Origin: a virus
Lineage: Duplodnaviria > Heunggongvirae > Uroviricota > Caudoviricetes
IMG/VR virus record: IMGVR_UViG_2534681701_000009
DNA: 10,264 nucleotides
Strand: one strand, 5' to 3'
Part shown: piece after piece, positions 1 through 7,193 of the stretch
Numbering within the stretch: position 1 is the stretch's first letter
How the letters are laid out: the number at the start of each line of letters is the position of its first letter
Notes under the pieces: generated by a model
Told to the model about the DNA's origin: nothing
Databases searched by the model: none
What the model saw: the letters and a program-made list of their open reading frames with translations, nothing else
Program-made: the position numbers and the translations under genes

Positions 1-1254
1 ATGCTGGAACAAATGGGCATTGCCGCGAAGCAAGCCTCGTATAAATTAGCGCAACTCTCCAGCCGCGAAAAAAATCGCGTGCTGGAAAAAATCGCCGATG
101 AACTGGAAGCACAAAGCGAAATCATCCTCAACGCTAACGCCCAGGATGTTGCTGACGCGCGAGCCAATGGCCTTAGCGAAGCGATGCTTGACCGTCTGGC
201 ACTGACGCCCGCACGGCTGAAAGGCATTGCCGACGATGTACGTCAGGTGTGCAACCTCGCCGATCCGGTGGGGCAGGTAATCGATGGCGGCGTACTGGAC
301 AGCGGCCTGCGTCTTGAGCGTCGTCGCGTACCGCTGGGGGTTATTGGCGTGATTTATGAAGCGCGCCCGAACGTGACGGTTGATGTCGCTTCGCTGTGCC
401 TGAAAACCGGTAATGCGGTGATCCTGCGCGGTGGCAAAGAAACGTGTCGCACTAACGCTGCAACGGTGGCGGTGATTCAGGACGCCCTGAAATCCTGCGG
501 CTTACCGGCGGGTGCCGTGCAGGCGATTGATAATCCTGACCGTGCGCTGGTCAGTGAAATGCTGCGTATGGATAAATACATCGACATGCTGATCCCGCGT
601 GGTGGCGCTGGTTTGCATAAACTGTGCCGTGAACAGTCGACAATCCCGGTGATCACAGGTGGTATAGGCGTATGCCATATTTACGTTGATGAAAGTGTAG
701 AGATCGCTGAAGCATTAAAAGTGATCGTCAACGCGAAAACTCAGCGTCCGAGCACATGTAATACGGTTGAAACGTTGCTGGTGAATAAAAACATCGCCGA
801 TAGCTTCCTGCCCGCATTAAGCAAACAAATGGCGGAAAGCGGCGTGACATTACACGCAGATGCAGCTGCACTGGCGCAGTTGCAGGCAGGCCCTGCGAAG
901 GTGGTTGCTGTTAAAGCCGAAGAGTATGACGATGAGTTTCTGTCATTAGATTTGAACGTCAAAATCGTCAGCGATCTTGACGATGCCATCGCCCATATTC
1001 GTGAACACGGCACACAACACTCCGATGCGATCCTGACCCGCGATATGCGCAACGCCCAGCGTTTTGTTAACGAAGTGGATTCGTCCGCTGTTTACGTTAA
1101 CGCCTCTACGCGTTTTACCGACGGCGGCCAGTTTGGTCTGGGTGCGGAAGTGGCGGTAAGCACACAAAAACTCCACGCGCGTGGCCCAATGGGGCTGGAA
1201 GCACTGACCACTTACAAGTGGATCGGCATTGGTGATTACACCATTCGTGCGTAA
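1..1254 (+). CDS. proA: gamma-glutamyl phosphate reductase (glutamate-5-semialdehyde dehydrogenase), complete, 417 aa
   Basis: Full-length ORF starting at window base 1 and ending in TAA; the translation matches the E. coli ProA sequence as I recall it; proA sits immediately upstream of thrW in E. coli. Confidence 0.95.
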
Positions 1255-1368: not shown

Positions 1369-1444
1369 GCCGATATAGCTCAGTTGGTAGAGCAGCGCAT
1401 TCGTAATGCGAAGGTCGTAGGTTCGACTCCTATTATCGGCACCA
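1369..1444 (+). tRNA. thrW: tRNA-Thr (anticodon CGU), 76 nt with encoded CCA
   Basis: GCCGATATAGCTCAGTTGGTAGAGCAGCGCATTCGTAATGCGAAGGTCGTAGGTTCGACTCCTATTATCGGCACCA: cloverleaf-compatible acceptor/T-arm pairing, GTTCGA T-loop, anticodon loop TTCGTAA giving anticodon CGT; position after proA fits thrW. Confidence 0.9.
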
Positions 1445-1609: not shown

Positions 1610-2824
1610 GTGAAACTCAATGCCCGTCAAATAGACACAGCCAAGCCAAAAGAGAAGGCTTACAAGCTGGCCGATGGTGGCGGTTTGTATCTCTTGGTAA
1701 AACCTAATGGAGGTAAATACTGGCGACTTAAATATCGTGTAGCTGGTAAAGAGAAGCTATTGGCACTAGGTGTTTATCCTGAGGTTACTCTAGCCGATGC
1801 TCGGGCAAAACGTGAAGATGCGAAAAGAGGTATCGCTGGTGGTATCGATCCGATGGAAGCGAAACGAGAGGAAAAGATTGCCCGGGAAACGCAGTTAAAC
1901 AACACCTTCAAAGATATTGCCATTGAGTGGCACAGCAGCAAATTAAAAAAATGGTCTGCTGGTTATGCTTCAGACATCCTCGAAGCCTTCAACAAAGATG
2001 TGTTCCCTTACATTGGCAAAAAAACCATCGCCGAAATCAAACCACTTGAACTTCTGAATGTGCTGCGTCGCATCGAGGGGCGCGGTGCTACAGAAAAAGC
2101 CAAAAAAGTGAGGCAGCGGTGCGGGGAAGTTTTCCGCTATGCAATAGTCACTGGTCGCGCAGAGTATAACCCTGCACCAGACCTTACTAGCGCGATGCAA
2201 GGCCATGAATCTAATCATTACCCTTTCCTTACAGCCAAAGAATTACCTGATTTTTTCAAGGCATTGTCCAGTTACTCAGGAAGCGCATTGGTTGTTATGG
2301 CGGCTCGTCTACTGATTATCACCGGCTTGCGGACTGGCGAACTACGTGGCGCATTATGGGATGAAATTGATTTCAACAAGGCTATCTGGGAGATACCCGC
2401 TTCACGTATGAAAATGCGGCGGACTCATATTGTGCCATTGTCTGAGCAGGCTCTTTCGCTTATTGGGAAGATTAGAGAAATAACAGGCAATTACCCTCTT
2501 ATGTTTCCCGGGCGCAATGATCCAAGGAAAACAATGAGCGAGGCCAGCATAAACCAAGTGTTTAAGCGCATTGGCTACGCTGGACGTGTAACTGGTCATG
2601 GGTTCCGGCACACTATGAGTACGATTTTGCATGAGCAGGGCTATAACACCGCGTGGATAGAAACGCAGCTCGCTCACGTTGATAAGAACTCAATTCGTGG
2701 CACATACAACCATGCGCAATATCTGGATGGAAGGCGGGAGATGCTTCAATGGTATGCCGACTATATGGATTCTCTCGAGCATGGCGGAAATGTGGTGCAT
2801 ATGGTGTTTGAAAAACACGCATGA
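1610..2824 (+). CDS. int: P4-family tyrosine recombinase / integrase, 404 aa, GTG start
   Basis: ORF directly downstream of the tRNA; GGAGG 9 nt upstream of GTG; N-terminus KPKEKAYKLADGGGLYLLVKPNGGKYWRLKYR is typical of P4-type integrases; C-terminal HGFRHT ... RGTYNHAQY carries the recombinase His/Arg/Tyr catalytic motifs. Confidence 0.9.
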   Translation: MKLNARQIDTAKPKEKAYKLADGGGLYLLVKPNGGKYWRLKYRVAGKEKLLALGVYPEVTLADARAKREDAKRGIAGGIDPMEAKREEKIARETQLNNTFKDIAIEWHSSKLKKWSAGYASDILEAFNKDVFPYIGKKTIAEIKPLELLNVLRRIEGRGATEKAKKVRQRCGEVFRYAIVTGRAEYNPAPDLTSAMQGHESNHYPFLTAKELPDFFKALSSYSGSALVVMAARLLIITGLRTGELRGALWDEIDFNKAIWEIPASRMKMRRTHIVPLSEQALSLIGKIREITGNYPLMFPGRNDPRKTMSEASINQVFKRIGYAGRVTGHGFRHTMSTILHEQGYNTAWIETQLAHVDKNSIRGTYNHAQYLDGRREMLQWYADYMDSLEHGGNVVHMVFEKHA

Positions 2825-3277: not shown

Positions 3278-3292
3278 GGTAATGACTCTAAC

Positions 3293-3796
3293 TTATTGAT
3301 AGTGTTTTATGTTCAGATAATGCCCGATGACTTTGTCATGCAGCTCCACCGATTTTGAGAACGACAGCGACTTCCGTCCCAGCCGTGCCAGGTGCTGCCT
3401 CAGATTCAGGTTATGCCGCTCAATTCGCTGCGTATATCGCTTGCTGATTACGTGCAGCTTTCCCTTCAGGCGGGATTCATACAGCGGCCAGCCATCCGTC
3501 ATCCATATCACCACGTCAAAGGGTGACAGCAGGCTCATAAGACGCCCCAGCGTCGCCATAGTGCGTTCACCGAATACGTGCGCAACAACCGTCTTCCGGA
3601 GCCTGTCATACGCGTAAAACAGCCAGCGCTGGCGCGATTTAGCCCCGACATAGCCCCACTGTTCGTCCATTTCCGCGCAGACGATGACGTCACTGCCCGG
3701 CTGTATGCGCGAGGTTACCGACTGCGGCCTGAGTTTTTTAAGTGACGTAAAATCGTGTTGAGGCCAACGCCCATAATGCGGGCTGTTGCCCGGCAT
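3293..3796 (-). CDS. insB: IS1 InsB reading frame (expressed as InsAB' fusion via -1 frameshift), 167 aa as listed
   Basis: Translation ...[96 protein letters not shown]... matches IS1 InsB; overlaps insA as in IS1. Confidence 0.9.
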
Positions 3797-3990
3797 CCAA
3801 CGCCATTCATGGCCATATCAATGATTTTCTGGTGCGTACCGGGTTGAGAAGCAGTGTAAGTGAACTGCAGTTGCCATGTTTTACGGCAGTGAGAGCAGAG
3901 ATAGCGCTGATGTCCGGCAGTGCTTTTGCCGTTACGCACCACCCCGTCAGTAGCTGAACAGGAGGGACAGCTGATAGAAACAGAAGCCAC
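3715..3990 (-). CDS. insA: IS1 InsA (transposition regulator / N-terminal part of InsAB' transposase), 91 aa
   Basis: Translation [43 protein letters not shown]... is the canonical IS1 InsA with its zinc-finger motif. Confidence 0.93.
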
Positions 3991-4045
3991 TGGAGCACCT
4001 CAAAAACACCATCATACACTAAATCAGTAAGTTGGCAGCATCACC

Positions 4046-4676: not shown

Positions 4677-5510
4677 ATGAACATCGAAAAAAGCAGATTA
4701 ATTTCTGAGGCCGCCCCTCATCTGAACGCCTCTCTGGGCACAATTAACGGTAATGAATTTGCCGCAATTGTCCCGGTTATTCCTGGTCATATCGGTGGGC
4801 GTGAAACCAATATTGTTAGCGCAAAAGCGTTACACAAAGCGTTGGGCGTGGGAAAAGACTTCTCTACATGGATCACTGATCGCATCTCTGAATATGACTT
4901 CACCATTGGGCACGATTACTCAGTCCATAAAACAATTTCCCCAAATTTGGGGAAAAGCCCGAATGGCGCGGCTTACAGCAAGATAAAGCACTCTGGCAGA
5001 CCCGGCAAAGACTATCTGTTAAGTGTCGGAATGGCGAAAGAACTGGCAATGATCGAACGCAATGATCAGGGTCGCGCTATCCGCCGTTATTTCATCCAGT
5101 GCGAGGAAGAATTACAGCGTAGCGTGCCTGAAATCGCCGCCCGCTATCGTCGCCAGCTAAAAGCCCGTATCAGTGCCGCAAACAACTTTAAGCCAATGTG
5201 CGATGCGCTGAATATGGCCCGTGCCGAGATGGGTAAAACGACGCAGCAACACCACTACACAAACGAGAGCAATATGATTTCTCGTATCGTTCTTGGTGGG
5301 CTAACTGCTAAGCAGTGGGCGCGGATAAATGGCTATTCTGGCGAACCTCGCGACCATATGAACGCAGAACAGCTTGAGCACCTCTCATATCTCGAAAGCA
5401 CCAATATCACGTTAATTGATATGGGCATGGAATATGAGCAGCGCAAAGGAGAACTCACCCGCCTGTCGCAACGCTGGCTCGCTAAGCGTCTGGAGGCGGT
5501 CCATGTTTAA
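4677..5510 (+). CDS. phage antirepressor-like protein (AntA/Rha-type N-terminal region), 277 aa
   Basis: GGAG 8 nt upstream of ATG; motifs KDFSTWITDRISEYDF and LSVGMAKELAMIERNDQGRAIRRYFIQCEEEL resemble AntA/Rha-family antirepressor domains from memory. Confidence 0.7.
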   Translation: MNIEKSRLISEAAPHLNASLGTINGNEFAAIVPVIPGHIGGRETNIVSAKALHKALGVGKDFSTWITDRISEYDFTIGHDYSVHKTISPNLGKSPNGAAYSKIKHSGRPGKDYLLSVGMAKELAMIERNDQGRAIRRYFIQCEEELQRSVPEIAARYRRQLKARISAANNFKPMCDALNMARAEMGKTTQQHHYTNESNMISRIVLGGLTAKQWARINGYSGEPRDHMNAEQLEHLSYLESTNITLIDMGMEYEQRKGELTRLSQRWLAKRLEAVHV

Positions 5511-5685
5511 GCCGACAGGAACACCACAACCTCAAAAACGCTACAAAGATGCCCACGGAGCACTCGTTACTGTCGAAAGCGTGTCTCACAACCGAGTGAC
5601 GTTTTATCGCGACGGGTATCAATCGCCATGCGTACAACCGCTGGCGCGTTTCATGAAGGAGTTCGCGGAGGTTAACAAATGCTAA
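5503..5685 (+). CDS. small hypothetical protein, 60 aa (MFKPTGTPQ...)
   Basis: ATG embedded in the upstream stop (ATGTTTAA) suggests translational coupling; I prefer this start to the longer 5416 start in the ORF track, which overlaps the upstream gene by 95 nt. Confidence 0.5.
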   Translation: MFKPTGTPQPQKRYKDAHGALVTVESVSHNRVTFYRDGYQSPCVQPLARFMKEFAEVNKC

Positions 5686-6746
5686 CCGTCCAGAAGAAGA
5701 CATTTTCACTGGCTGGTATGTCGCCAAAATCCAGTAATATGACGGCAAAGTCAGGCATTAATACAGCAGATACAAGCAAAGTTTATCATTTGCTGGTGGT
5801 CGGAACGGATGCCTTAACCATATCAGAAATCTCGGGCGATGATATTAGCATTGAGAAGGTCAGCGGCTGCGCCAGAAAATTTCTGGTCGTAGATGATGTC
5901 TTCCGCTCGTGTAGTGACTCCACAAAAACATTCGTCCACGCGCGTGACGTTAACGAAATGAGCGCGATGTACTGTGCATCTGGTGCTTCCAATAGCGAGT
6001 TTTCGGAGTCCATAAAAAAGAGCTTGCCGTTATGCGGCAACACGGTTTATGGTTATAAGGCACCTCATAAAACGGGTGCCGGGATTGGCGTCCTGGTAAA
6101 TCGAATGGCGACATATGACGCGCCGAGCGTCTTTTTTTATGTCGTAGGTCTGACTCACCCATTTTTTGGGCGTTGGTGTATAATCCAGCGCCTTTGTCAA
6201 TCAATGGTGGCTCAGGCAGGGGCTTCTTCGGAAGCGCCGGTATCCATTCGAGCCGGTTACGCCAACCCTGTCTGGGCTACCACCAGCGAAATTGGCGTTT
6301 CCGGTGGTAGCGTTACATGCTATCGAATGGAGGCTGCCACATGCTGGCTACTACCCCTACCCAAAAACCGCAATTTATCTGGATTATCGCCGCAGTTCGC
6401 CGCGATTGCCCGACAATTACCGCCAAAATTCATCATATTGCTGCCGAGTCTGAACGCGATGCTCGCCGTTCTCTGGTGCGCGATCACGTCTGCTTTTTTG
6501 CTGGTCGTATCCGCATGGAGGTGGCTCATGATTAAAACCTACGATGTGCATATGGATCCCCTCGAACGCACAAGCCAGATCATCACACTGACAGAAGTGA
6601 TTAACGACATTCTGGTGAGCAACTCTCCCTCACGAGACGAAAGACTGAAGGCGTTACTCGCGATATTGGATCTCGCCGTTCGTGACGTTCATTTCCTGCT
6701 GGAAGGTGGCGAAATGCCAGGAAAAACGGGGGCAACCAATGAATAA
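5679..6746 (+). CDS. uncertain: 355-codon open frame; plausibly a real coupled gene at its 5' end (5679 to ~6116) but no in-frame stop before 6746
   Basis: ATG overlaps the upstream stop (ATGCTAA) with GAGG 7 nt upstream; frame stays open through a terminator-like hairpin, a promoter-like TATAAT, the structured region and the out-of-frame Icd-like ORF. Probably not one protein. Confidence 0.25.
6117..6138 (+). terminator. candidate rho-independent terminator (GACGC-GCCGA-GCGTC followed by T7)
   Basis: 5-bp GC-rich stem, 5-nt loop, immediately followed by TTTTTTT at 6132..6138; lies at the end of the alpA-to-orf60 coupled module. Confidence 0.4.
6150..6184 (+). promoter_or_regulatory. candidate sigma70 promoter, perfect -10 TATAAT at 6179..6184 with TG two bases upstream and an A/T-rich tract before it
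   Basis: GGTGTATAAT; no canonical -35 at 17-bp spacing, so assignment rests on the -10 and context (just downstream of the terminator, upstream of the structured region and icd-like gene). Confidence 0.4.
6199..6335 (+). ncRNA. candidate C4/CI-type antisense immunity RNA with flanking target sites (approximate bounds)
   Basis: 9-bp stem GCTACCACC (6276..6284) / GGTGGTAGC (6303..6311); TCCATTCGA (6243..6251) is complementary to TCGAATGGA (6323..6331), which overlaps the GGAGG ribosome-binding site of the icd-like ORF; a related ATCAATGGTGG motif sits upstream at 6199..6210. Confidence 0.4.
6341..6535 (+). CDS. Icd-like (host cell division inhibitor-like) small protein, 64 aa
   Basis: GGAGG 7 nt upstream of ATG; [22 protein letters not shown]... 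resembles Icd-like proteins of P1/P4-type immunity regions from memory; stop overlaps the next ATG. Confidence 0.55.
   Translation: MLATTPTQKPQFIWIIAAVRRDCPTITAKIHHIAAESERDARRSLVRDHVCFFAGRIRMEVAHD
6528..6746 (+). CDS. small hypothetical protein, 72 aa
   Basis: ATG overlaps the icd-like stop; first of a chain of coupled ORFs. Confidence 0.5.
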   Translation: MIKTYDVHMDPLERTSQIITLTEVINDILVSNSPSRDERLKALLAILDLAVRDVHFLLEGGEMPGKTGATNE

Positions 6747-6933
6747 CTCAATTAATACCCCTCGCCTTACGTCCGCACTTCAATTAATCGAGCAAGCAGC
6801 GGCTGTCCCGGTTGCTGTCAGTCTTTCGGCTGAAGAAATGGACGCTGCTGATGTCGTGGATGCGATTAAAGCGTGCTCATCTTTGGTTAACGATGCCCGT
6901 GACGAGCTGGTAATTCTTGGGGGTGAAAAATGA
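6739..6933 (+). CDS. small hypothetical protein, 64 aa ([10 protein letters not shown]...)
   Basis: Start embedded in upstream stop as ATGAATAA; preferred over the 6682 start in the ORF track. Confidence 0.5.
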   Translation: MNNSINTPRLTSALQLIEQAAAVPVAVSLSAEEMDAADVVDAIKACSSLVNDARDELVILGGEK

Positions 6934-7193
6934 ATATCAACTTAATTTATCGTCATCCGTGTGAGCTGGAAATTGAATCATTGCTGAGCCGTGAAGAGCC
7001 ATATCCAGACACATTCACTCTTGCAGATCGCACGACTGAACGGCTTACCAGAGCGCGCACAGGTCTGGTTCATGTGATGAATGAGATTCTTCCATCGGTG
7101 GGAGGGGAACAGGCGACAGTAATCACTAGCTGGCTACAAAAAGTTACCTCTCTGATAGATATCAGTTTAATCGATGCGGAGAGTGCGAAATGA
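6930..7193 (+). CDS. small hypothetical protein, 87 aa
   Basis: ATGA start/stop overlap with upstream ORF. Confidence 0.55.
   Translation: MNINLIYRHPCELEIESLLSREEPYPDTFTLADRTTERLTRARTGLVHVMNEILPSVGGEQATVITSWLQKVTSLIDISLIDAESAK

Follow-up and report, generated by a model that had tools for sequence, protein, structure and literature searches.

An open frame of 355 codons overlies an RNA immunity cassette

In the window, i.e. the whole stretch of 10,264 nucleotides analysed here, reading of the frames confirmed that one of them is stop-free for 355 codons, from ATG 5679 to TAA 6744–6746, as the first-pass annotation had proposed (Table 1). The ATG lies within an ATGCTAA (5679–5685) that also holds the stop codon of the upstream DUF4222 gene (5683–5685), and a GGAGG is found 8 nt 5′ of it, in agreement with the start inside an upstream stop and the ribosome binding site (RBS) described before. 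Judging by this start/stop overlap, the long open reading frame (ORF) is presumably translationally coupled to the DUF4222 gene. The genes of the operon are chained by overlaps of 4–8 nt, and the long ORF closes the sole untranslated gap. The features that had been listed along its course, a terminator-like hairpin, a TATAAT, structured RNA, an out-of-frame icd-like gene and a 72-aa ORF, are each present.

Table 1. Features at the locus of the 355-codon ORF (positions in the window)
Feature	Position	Strand	Evidence or remark
DUF4222 gene upstream of the long ORF	5503..5685	+	Stop overlaps ATG 5679
eta-like ('ash family') ORF, 355 codons	5679..6746	+	Starts on the DUF4222 stop and ends together with the 72-aa gene
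P22-like small-terminase (gene 3, terS) fragment	5827..5933	-	Antisense to the long ORF
Candidate constitutive promoter, position homologous to P4 PLE	6024..6053	+	TTGCCG-18-TATGGT (putative, from sequence)
isrK / P4 seqA-like RNA	6060..6137	+	Rfam RF01394, 67.1 bits
TATAAT in the 62-nt spacer	6179..6184	+	No good -35; doubtful as promoter
C4 / P4 CI-like antisense immunity RNA	6200..6287	+	Rfam RF01695, 79.5 bits
Second C4 target TCGAATGG (6323-6330), icd RBS and spacer	6323..6340	+	Complementarity
icd/kil homologue, 64 aa, cell-division-inhibitor gene	6341..6535	+	NCBIfam NF033153, 71.7 bits
72-aa gene, in frame within the 3′ part of the long ORF	6528..6746	+	WP_072035456.1 in G749

The ORF is identical to RefSeq cluster P0001 (306 members), an 'ash family protein' (WP_000958755.1), and its residues 124–232 (nt 6048–6374) match Pfam PF10554 Phage_ASH with 105.2 bits against a gathering threshold of 26 bits. 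Exactly beneath this match lie two RNA genes. The isrK-like RNA passes the gathering threshold of RF01394 (50 bits) with its 3′ intrinsic terminator included, and a terminator scan placed the hairpin and T-run at 6117–6137, the 3′ end of the match; the C4-like RNA likewise passes that of RF01695 (45 bits). The specificity loop of the latter, CCATTCGAG at 6244–6252, is complementary (6244–6251) to a first target TCGAATGG at 6101–6108, within the isrK-like element, and to the second target, which overlaps the icd RBS GGAGG (6329–6333). The loop and both targets co-vary across at least nine specificities (alleles, genera), which supports an RNA function. The TATAAT is doubtful as a promoter of C4, as it has no acceptable -35, is deleted from the sister allele L006 in which everything else is kept, and is absent from loci with spacers of 21–24 nt.

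Two small genes follow. The icd/kil homologue, which is homologous to P4 Kil, exceeds the cut-off of 25 bits for the Icd-like family NF033153 and shows coding-type substitutions (47/36/92 at the three codon positions). Its start, earlier placed at 6317, has been corrected to the homologous ATG at 6341, downstream of the GGAGG. The 72-aa gene begins 8 nt before the icd stop, and its substitutions are distributed 56/31/84 by codon position.

The 5′ part of the ORF holds a terminase fragment and a candidate promoter

The 5′ end of the ORF had been taken for an ordinary gene ending at about 6116. This could not be upheld, since the region contains an antisense terS fragment and a putative promoter, and its substitutions (16/7/17 by codon position) display no coding pattern. 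Nor does any marker of a gene end lie near 6116; by that position the PLE-like candidate promoter has been passed and the isrK-like RNA has already begun. The TTGCCG-18-TATGGT of the window aligns with TTGCCT-18-TATAGT of P4 and has an A-tract upstream at 6014–6019; a generic promoter scan made no call there.

The terS remnant includes a 22-mer homologous to the P22 pac site (5912–5933) and carries stops in its minus-strand frame. It is possible that the 5′ extension thereby carries a captured P22-type pac site and that the island could be packaged by Lederbergvirus-type helpers, which suggests a route for the mobilisation of common E. coli islands by P22-like phages. No account of a P4-like island with a P22 pac fragment turned up in a literature search, and the N-terminal extensions of the Klebsiella and Buttiauxella loci, searched for terS fragments, gave no match in the phage collection. 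The minus-strand ORFs at 5786–6043 and 5950–6204 were considered as the 'true' genes of this region and rejected, as neither has a Pfam match. The terS remnant lies near these ORFs, in a different minus-strand frame.

The frame stays open among relatives

The open frame goes beyond chance: the whole ORF was open in 0 of 5000 dinucleotide-preserving shuffles, and its 5′ part (123 codons) in 3 of 5000. From the terminator to the end of icd (137 codons), 68 of 5000 shuffles were open. When the whole window was shuffled 200 times, the longest open stretch reached 286 codons.

Among close relatives the ORF is open at all seven loci, spanning four alleles of the hypervariable RNA region, despite the replacement of ~40% of the bases in 6084–6328 and one in-frame deletion of 39 nt (13 codons); indels among these loci come in multiples of three. 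The full-length ORF is present in E. coli, Klebsiella, Pluralibacter, Leclercia, Buttiauxella and Symbiopectobacterium. Neither the seven close loci nor the full-length database proteins show a stop near 6116, which speaks against a read-through pseudogene that had lost one.

More widely, across many enterobacterial genera, an ORF spans the RNAs in the same register at 34 of 46 isrK+C4 loci, a set that is enriched for ORF-bearing loci because it was collected by protein similarity to the ORF. At 7 of the 12 isrK+C4 loci without the ORF, stops in the Ash register fall inside the RNAs, indicating that the RNAs by themselves do not impose an open frame. In 25 of 35 related ORFs the ATG overlaps the stop codon of a gene upstream.

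The ORF crosses icd in the +1 frame, which is free of stops

The frame of icd is that of the long ORF +2, and icd is read by the long ORF in +1; the long ORF stops 211 nt past the icd stop. In the P4-type arrangement, found in P4, SfV, strain 6629, PSS-13 and 19 loci, the ORF is in frame with icd/kil through a spacer of 3 nt (GGAGGCTGCC-NNN-ATG), whereas the spacer of the window family, GCC-AC-ATG, has 2 nt ('AC', 6339–6340). Because of this shorter spacer the ORF passes through icd at +1 and shares its stop with the gene that follows, so that the gene nested in frame within it is the 72-aa gene and not icd.

This difference would fit a frameshifted pseudogene, with 1 nt deleted ahead of the icd ATG of an eta–kil type locus, whose remaining open frame would be neutral read-through in decay. 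PGAP at times labels the ORF an 'incomplete' ash pseudogene, which lends the idea some colour. In RefSeq the stretch appears in two forms, as a single 355-aa 'ash family protein' or as an ash pseudogene together with icd and a hypothetical gene. However, the +1 frame of icd is stop-free at 10 of 10 loci that enter it at +1, from several genera, compared to 2 of 20 in-frame loci (Fisher p = 2e-6; p = 0.0015 with lineages collapsed), indicating that it is kept open by selection; this comparison is independent of the ascertainment by protein similarity. The out-of-frame arrangement has also lasted in several genera, with the spacers AC, TC, AA and TT and at least four different downstream genes, and the frame has survived the base replacement and deletion among the seven close relatives. 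A decaying pseudogene is thus very unlikely.

The same association bears on coincidence, i.e. that conserved GC-rich RNAs and a small gene merely happen to lack stops in one frame, which was then annotated. Over icd alone the probability that the +1 frame is open is appreciable, 0.19–0.45 by codon shuffling or synonymous resampling, and the +1 frame over P4 kil is also open, though unused. Yet coincidence accounts neither for the shuffles of the whole ORF and its 5′ part nor for the dependence of openness on the entering frame, and the indels in multiples of three, the start consistently coupled to the upstream stop and the tolerance of the RNAs for stops at ORF-less loci all argue against it. 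We regard it as extremely improbable.

Among the three alternatives raised by the first-pass annotation, the evidence therefore favours a genuinely overlapping long gene, given its openness in all close relatives, its full length in several genera and the precedent of P4 eta. A frameshift is accepted as history only, from the 2-nt spacer compared to the P4 type, with the decaying pseudogene set aside in view of the stop-free +1 frame, and no homologue with a stop near 6116 found; coincidence is rejected on account of the shuffles and by the association of openness with frame.

The Ash part shows no protein-level constraint

An overlapping gene could still encode an ordinary protein, namely a multi-domain 355-aa regulator of the 'Bro network' with a folded Ash domain, to which the RNA genes would be incidental. 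Phage_ASH is kept by Pfam as a protein family and the match of the ORF is strong; PMC10111431 treats it as a Bro-network domain; and in some relatives it is fused to AntA (P0008, P0014). Nevertheless, the substitutions in the Ash frame show no periodicity and no relaxation at the third position (146/135/146), and over icd the changes hit mainly the second codon position of the long ORF. The conserved 'residues' of Ash fall where the RNA stems, the terminator and the A-tract of the promoter lie, 'Ash-like' similarity is found by tblastn also at loci where the frame is broken, and the N-termini of the ORFs are unrelated between lineages. AlphaFold2 gave no confident fold, with a mean pLDDT of 35 and values below 50 at residues 1–296 except 165–173; among the parts of the locus, only the 72-aa gene rises above 50. 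As the alignment was shallow (44 sequences), these low values are weak evidence. The Ash part is thus without protein-level constraint, and one real, folded 355-aa product, as the earlier proposal of a single protein would have it, is unlikely. The opposite extreme, in which the Ash family is a purely spurious translation of RNA genes, was retained only in part, as the frame is maintained and P4 eta is reported to be translated.

Comparison with P4 eta, P1/P7 immI and Gifsy-1 isrK

The closest known counterpart is eta of satellite P4. The P4 ORF (locus L011, 1738–2337) has 199 codons. Its start overlaps the stop of ORF88 (ATGA), and it extends across isrK (1813–1890) and C4 (1998–2085) as far as the kil stop; against Phage_ASH, P4 Eta gives 82.4 bits, and the P4 ORF matches both Phage_ASH and Icd-like. 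In PMC10111431, CI and seqA are placed inside P4 eta, as detected by Rfam C4 and isrK, and eta translation is described, at second hand, as preventing immunity-specific termination. Like P4 eta, the ORF of the window has its start codon on an upstream stop, traverses an isrK/seqA-like element and a C4/CI-like RNA in the shared register, and matches Phage_ASH; in both, an Icd/Kil homologue follows the RNAs with its RBS overlapping the second antisense target, and the gene after it begins 8 nt ahead of the icd/kil stop. In contrast, P4 eta reads kil in frame and shares its stop, whereas in the window the spacer is 1 nt shorter and the end lies 211 nt later. The window ORF also differs by a 123-codon 5′ extension that holds the antisense terS fragment, and by its coupling, presumed from the overlap, to a DUF4222 gene instead of an alpA/vis homologue.

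The layout also resembles immI of P1 and P7 (c4 antisense RNA, icd, ant), with a C4-family RNA, an upstream a1/b1-like target, a downstream target at the icd RBS, and icd next. In relatives of the window, matches to Rfam c4-a1b1 overlap isrK. In P1 the gene downstream is ant, and it is the translation of icd itself that couples to ant expression.

A third comparison is the isrK–orf45–anrP region of Salmonella Gifsy-1, where IsrK, a structural homologue of P4 SeqA, ends in an intrinsic terminator and is followed by orf45 (PMC4825925). The nucleotide sequence of orf45 is conserved while its amino-acid sequence is not, and the gene that follows is expressed only if orf45 is translated (PMC4825925). 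The window shares the IsrK-type RNA with an intrinsic terminator and an ORF conserved without its peptide. Unlike the long ORF, orf45 starts downstream of IsrK and has only 45 codons, and no ORF runs across IsrK; in addition, the Gifsy-1 IsrK acts in trans as an activator and no icd follows. The ash family label of Pfam and RefSeq gives no hint of a dual use: in the window, the 'domain' coincides with two RNA genes and has no coding periodicity.

The ORF as a possible track for ribosomes across the cassette

Taking P4 eta as the guide, we consider it probable that the long ORF is the counterpart of eta in this E. coli satellite island, bridging the RNA immunity cassette, and that the act of translation, not the product, is functional. 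The ORF would then serve by being translated, and its peptide would be of no consequence. In the repressed state, by analogy with P4, transcripts from the internal promoter would be untranslated and would yield the antisense RNA, which would pair with its two targets, blocking icd translation and halting transcription short of the replication genes. If the cassette is instead transcribed from upstream, through the alpA / AntA / DUF4222 operon, ribosomes coupled from the DUF4222 gene would cross the entire cassette. Their passage would prevent the hairpin of the terminator from folding and the antisense RNA from pairing, and would deny Rho access to the transcript; the downstream genes would then be expressed despite immunity. 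The sequence comparisons establish the anatomy, the homology to P4 eta, the covariation of the RNAs, selection for openness and the absence of constraint on the protein; the translation of the ORF and its anti-termination effect are argued here from the behaviour of P4 eta, with the frame kept open through icd, in whichever frame it enters, as indirect evidence for the latter. In the lineage of the window, the spacer shorter by 1 nt would have led the bridging frame to cross icd at +1 and to merge with the frame of the next gene.

A broader proposal, which we put forward as evenly balanced, concerns a widespread sub-lineage of P4-like satellites in E. coli, Klebsiella, Leclercia, Buttiauxella, Symbiopectobacterium and Pluralibacter. 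There, the eta-like ORF would be a frame-agnostic 'ribosome bridge' on which selection acts only through the absence of stops; the 1-nt shift would have been tolerated, the +1 frame of icd would since have been policed against stops, and Pfam Ash would be no more than what two RNA genes and a promoter look like in translation.

The open frame over two RNA genes and over the +1 frame of another gene fits the model for P4 eta and extends it to an out-of-frame layout. It offers comparative evidence that an ORF may be conserved purely as a ribosome track, its peptide being free to vary. The ambiguity in annotation is settled likewise, as the overlapping features all appear to be real at once, and domain-network analyses should be cautious in counting Phage_ASH among protein domains.

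Finally, an IS1 interrupts the alpA-like gene in this window, and the upstream transcription that the bridge model needs may be broken in this copy.

The open frame and the RNA elements it crosses

The frame from ATG 5679 to TAA 6744–6746 runs for 355 codons with zero internal stops, compared with about 16 and 22 stops in the other two forward frames over 5679–6746. The first-pass annotation considered stop-free passage over ~140 non-coding or alternate-frame codons unlikely, though not impossible, by chance. Dinucleotide shuffles left the whole frame open in 0 of 5000 trials, the 5′ 123 codons in 3 of 5000 and the 137-codon stretch between the terminator and the icd end in 68 of 5000. The terminator-like hairpin, structured RNA, icd-like gene and 72-aa ORF described along it are also real, being the isrK 3′ hairpin, a C4 antisense RNA, an Icd-like gene and the gene at 6528–6746, respectively. 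Pfam finds a single domain in the 355-aa product, Phage_ASH, at residues 124–232 (nt 6048–6374), an interval that coincides exactly with the isrK element plus spacer, C4 RNA and icd ribosome-binding site. In some RefSeq genomes the identical ORF is named 'ash family protein', while in others the same stretch is divided among three entries: icd, a hypothetical gene and an ash 'pseudogene'. The long ORF is a genuine, conserved frame and already carries a name in databases.

Features of the window and the evidence for each
Feature	Position	Strand	Evidence or remark
proA (E. coli)	1–1254		
tRNA-Thr(CGU)	1369–1444		
P4-type integrase	1610–2824		
IS1 copy	3279–4045		insA/insB on minus strand
P22-like small-terminase (terS) fragment	5827–5933	minus	107 nt; 86–92% identity with terS of Lederbergvirus from E. 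coli and Salmonella
pac-like 22-mer	5933–5912	minus	window GAATGTTTTTGTGGAGTCACTA; P22 GAAGATTTATCTGAAGTCGTTA
isrK	6060–6137	plus	Rfam, 67 bits; 3′ hairpin and U-run form the 'terminator'
C4 antisense RNA	6200–6287	plus	Rfam, 79.5 bits
Icd-like gene	homologous start ATG 6341		GGAGG 6329–6333 ahead; NCBIfam NF033153, 71.7 bits
72-aa gene	6528–6746	plus	shares the frame of the long ORF

Comparison with phage P4

The explanation of the long ORF is a known system, the eta gene and CI/seqA immunity region of P4. There, eta contains the CI RNA and seqA, which the Rfam C4 and isrK models detect, a constitutive promoter inside eta yields a transcript that ends early via CI/seqA interactions, and Kil is a truncated Eta (2023 paper, PMC10111431); as told in that paper, termination is prevented by Eta translation. 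IsrK has been equated with P4 SeqA in the Gifsy-1 IsrK paper, where orf45 is a related case in which translation, not the peptide, matters (PMC4825925). P4 is laid out in the same way: its ORF (P4 locus L011, 1738–2337, 199 codons) starts on the ORF88 stop (ATGA), crosses isrK (1813–1890) and C4 (1998–2085), ends at the stop of kil and scores as Phage_ASH plus Icd-like. P4 Kil and the Icd of the window are homologues.

Unlike in P4, icd is crossed out of frame here, while selection keeps that frame open. In P4, SfV, strain 6629, PSS-13 and 19 loci of other genera, GGAGGCTGCC-NNN-ATG precedes icd/kil and icd shares the frame of the bridging ORF, whereas the window family has GCC-AC-ATG and the other out-of-frame loci have a TC, AA or TT spacer. 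With the 2-nt spacer, the bridging ORF enters icd at +1. Because the next gene always begins 8 nt ahead of the icd stop, it too is in +1, and an out-of-frame bridging ORF continues into it and terminates at its stop codon. P4 too has no stop in the +1 frame over kil, which continues into epsilon and makes a 190-codon open stretch from inside the CI RNA (L011 2045–2617). Eta does not use this frame, and only 2 of the 20 in-frame loci, P4 among them, have it open.

Selection on the open frame

The loci compared were retrieved by their similarity to the long ORF. The +1 frame of icd is stop-free in all 10 out-of-frame loci (Escherichia, Symbiopectobacterium, Leclercia, Buttiauxella, Klebsiella and two MAGs) and in 2/20 in-frame loci (Fisher test, p = 2e-6; p = 0.0015 after related loci were collapsed), a test independent of the classing because loci were classed solely by which frame is open across isrK–C4. 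Protein databases contain full-length out-of-frame ORFs of this kind from E. coli, Klebsiella and Pluralibacter, whose 3′ ends run into at least four different downstream genes. Among the close relatives, neither the four alleles of the RNA region nor a 39-nt deletion interrupts the long ORF. An open frame is not imposed by the isrK and C4 RNAs alone: of 12 loci with both RNAs and no spanning ORF, mostly of another element type with EFASI RNA, seven carry stops within the RNAs in the Ash register. These comparisons argue that the +1 frame across icd is held open by selection.

Substitutions by codon position show a normal coding pattern in icd (47/36/92) and the 72-aa gene (56/31/84). Across 33 diverse loci the Ash frame gives 146/135/146 (entropies 0.883/0.868/0.878), and this evenness places conservation there at the nucleotide level. 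Of the genuinely overlapping long gene that the first pass listed as one alternative, the open, conserved frame stands, but protein-level constraint is not seen in the Ash part. In the icd segment, most changes hit the second codon position of the long ORF. Upstream of the Ash match, the conserved 'EFSESIKK' motif corresponds to the A-tract and the bases immediately 5′ of the candidate promoter's −35. N-terminal extensions are unrelated between lineages. AlphaFold2 gave a mean pLDDT of 35, with only residues ~297–340 (the nested 72-aa gene) reaching 53–63, which is weak evidence because the 44-sequence alignment is shallow.

The 5′ part had been read as an ordinary gene from 5679 to ~6116. This did not hold up, as the two alleles of the close family differ by 16/7/17 substitutions by codon position and the extension contains an antisense terS remnant. 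This fragment, which the long ORF crosses in the codon-aligned antisense frame, is itself interrupted by stops when translated, and its boundaries are identical in both alleles. The terS homology begins exactly where the annotated P22 pac site lies, and the fragment may be a pac-site mimic through which P22-like helper phages would package the island.

The RNA immunity cassette

The C4 loop CCATTCGA (6244–6251) is complementary to TCGAATGG at two sites, 6101–6108 within the isrK element and 6323–6330 abutting the icd RBS. The interval 6084–6328 is hypervariable among close E. coli relatives, with the loop and both targets changing together, and at least nine distinct loop sequences occur across genera, each with matching targets at both sites; the RNA switch looks functional in the window. 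Comparison of the window with the relatives' loci L003–L006 shows at least four alleles of this cassette among islands otherwise 96–99% identical, beside an almost invariant icd (6329–6526); the cassette is a recombination hot spot, and the pattern looks like a swapping of immunity specificity.

A promoter-like TTGCCG-18-TATGGT (6024–6053), just 5′ of the isrK start, aligns with P4 TTGCCT-18-TATAGT. The inverted repeat TTGCCG-cataa-CGGCAA (6024–6040), scored as a minus-strand terminator in a scan, overlaps the −35 of this PLE-like candidate promoter and may serve as an operator or just belong to the promoter. The TATAAT noted in the first pass at 6179 is present, but a −35 is absent and the otherwise intact sister allele L006 has deleted it. 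A second enterobacterial element class (L034, L036, L037, L039, L041–L043, L047, L049–L052) has neither spanning ORF nor icd; the isrK–C4 gap is ~21–25 nt in most, and EFASI RNA lies 1.3–2.3 kb downstream in six.

In a mechanism proposed from the P4 case, transcripts that start at the internal promoter and are not translated would yield a short IsrK-like RNA and, on read-through, a C4-like RNA, which would pair with both targets, block icd translation and halt transcription before the replication genes. On transcripts from upstream, gap-free translation from AntA through DUF4222 to the bridging ORF would carry ribosomes across the terminator hairpin, both C4 targets and icd, rendering transcription immune-insensitive so that it reaches the downstream genes. 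That the ORF has to stay open at least as far as the icd end, in whichever frame it crosses, fits this ribosome-bridging model.

Island setting

The window carries an island of the P4-like satellite or PICI type, inserted at thrW. The integrase is followed by a small-gene operon (PM1773-like, AntA, DUF4222, the long ORF, four small ORFs and a primase gene) whose neighbouring genes share 4–8 nt overlaps. Of 5426 complete E. coli genomes, 1321 carry related copies, and 479 of these cover at least 80% of 5400–7000. IS1 sits ~20 nt into an alpA-like HTH gene that is intact in the strain CP53 island (L001 1631–1834), with a target duplication of ~10 nt implied by overlapping alignments. Given this insertion, the window copy may no longer fire the upstream operon; probably both that firing and excision are disabled. 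Rfam int-alpA RNA has no above-threshold match in the window, where IS1 disrupts the gene; matches upstream of six related loci (L020, L022, L023, L032, L033 and L044) confirm these as P4-type islands. Several database names, namely 'nicotinic acetylcholine receptor subunit beta' (RefSeq, L001 4531–4794) and 'ubiquinol-cytochrome C reductase' (RefSeq, L010 2953–3267) for small island ORFs and 'HAD family hydrolase' for some Klebsiella ash ORFs in protein databases, are likely annotation errors.
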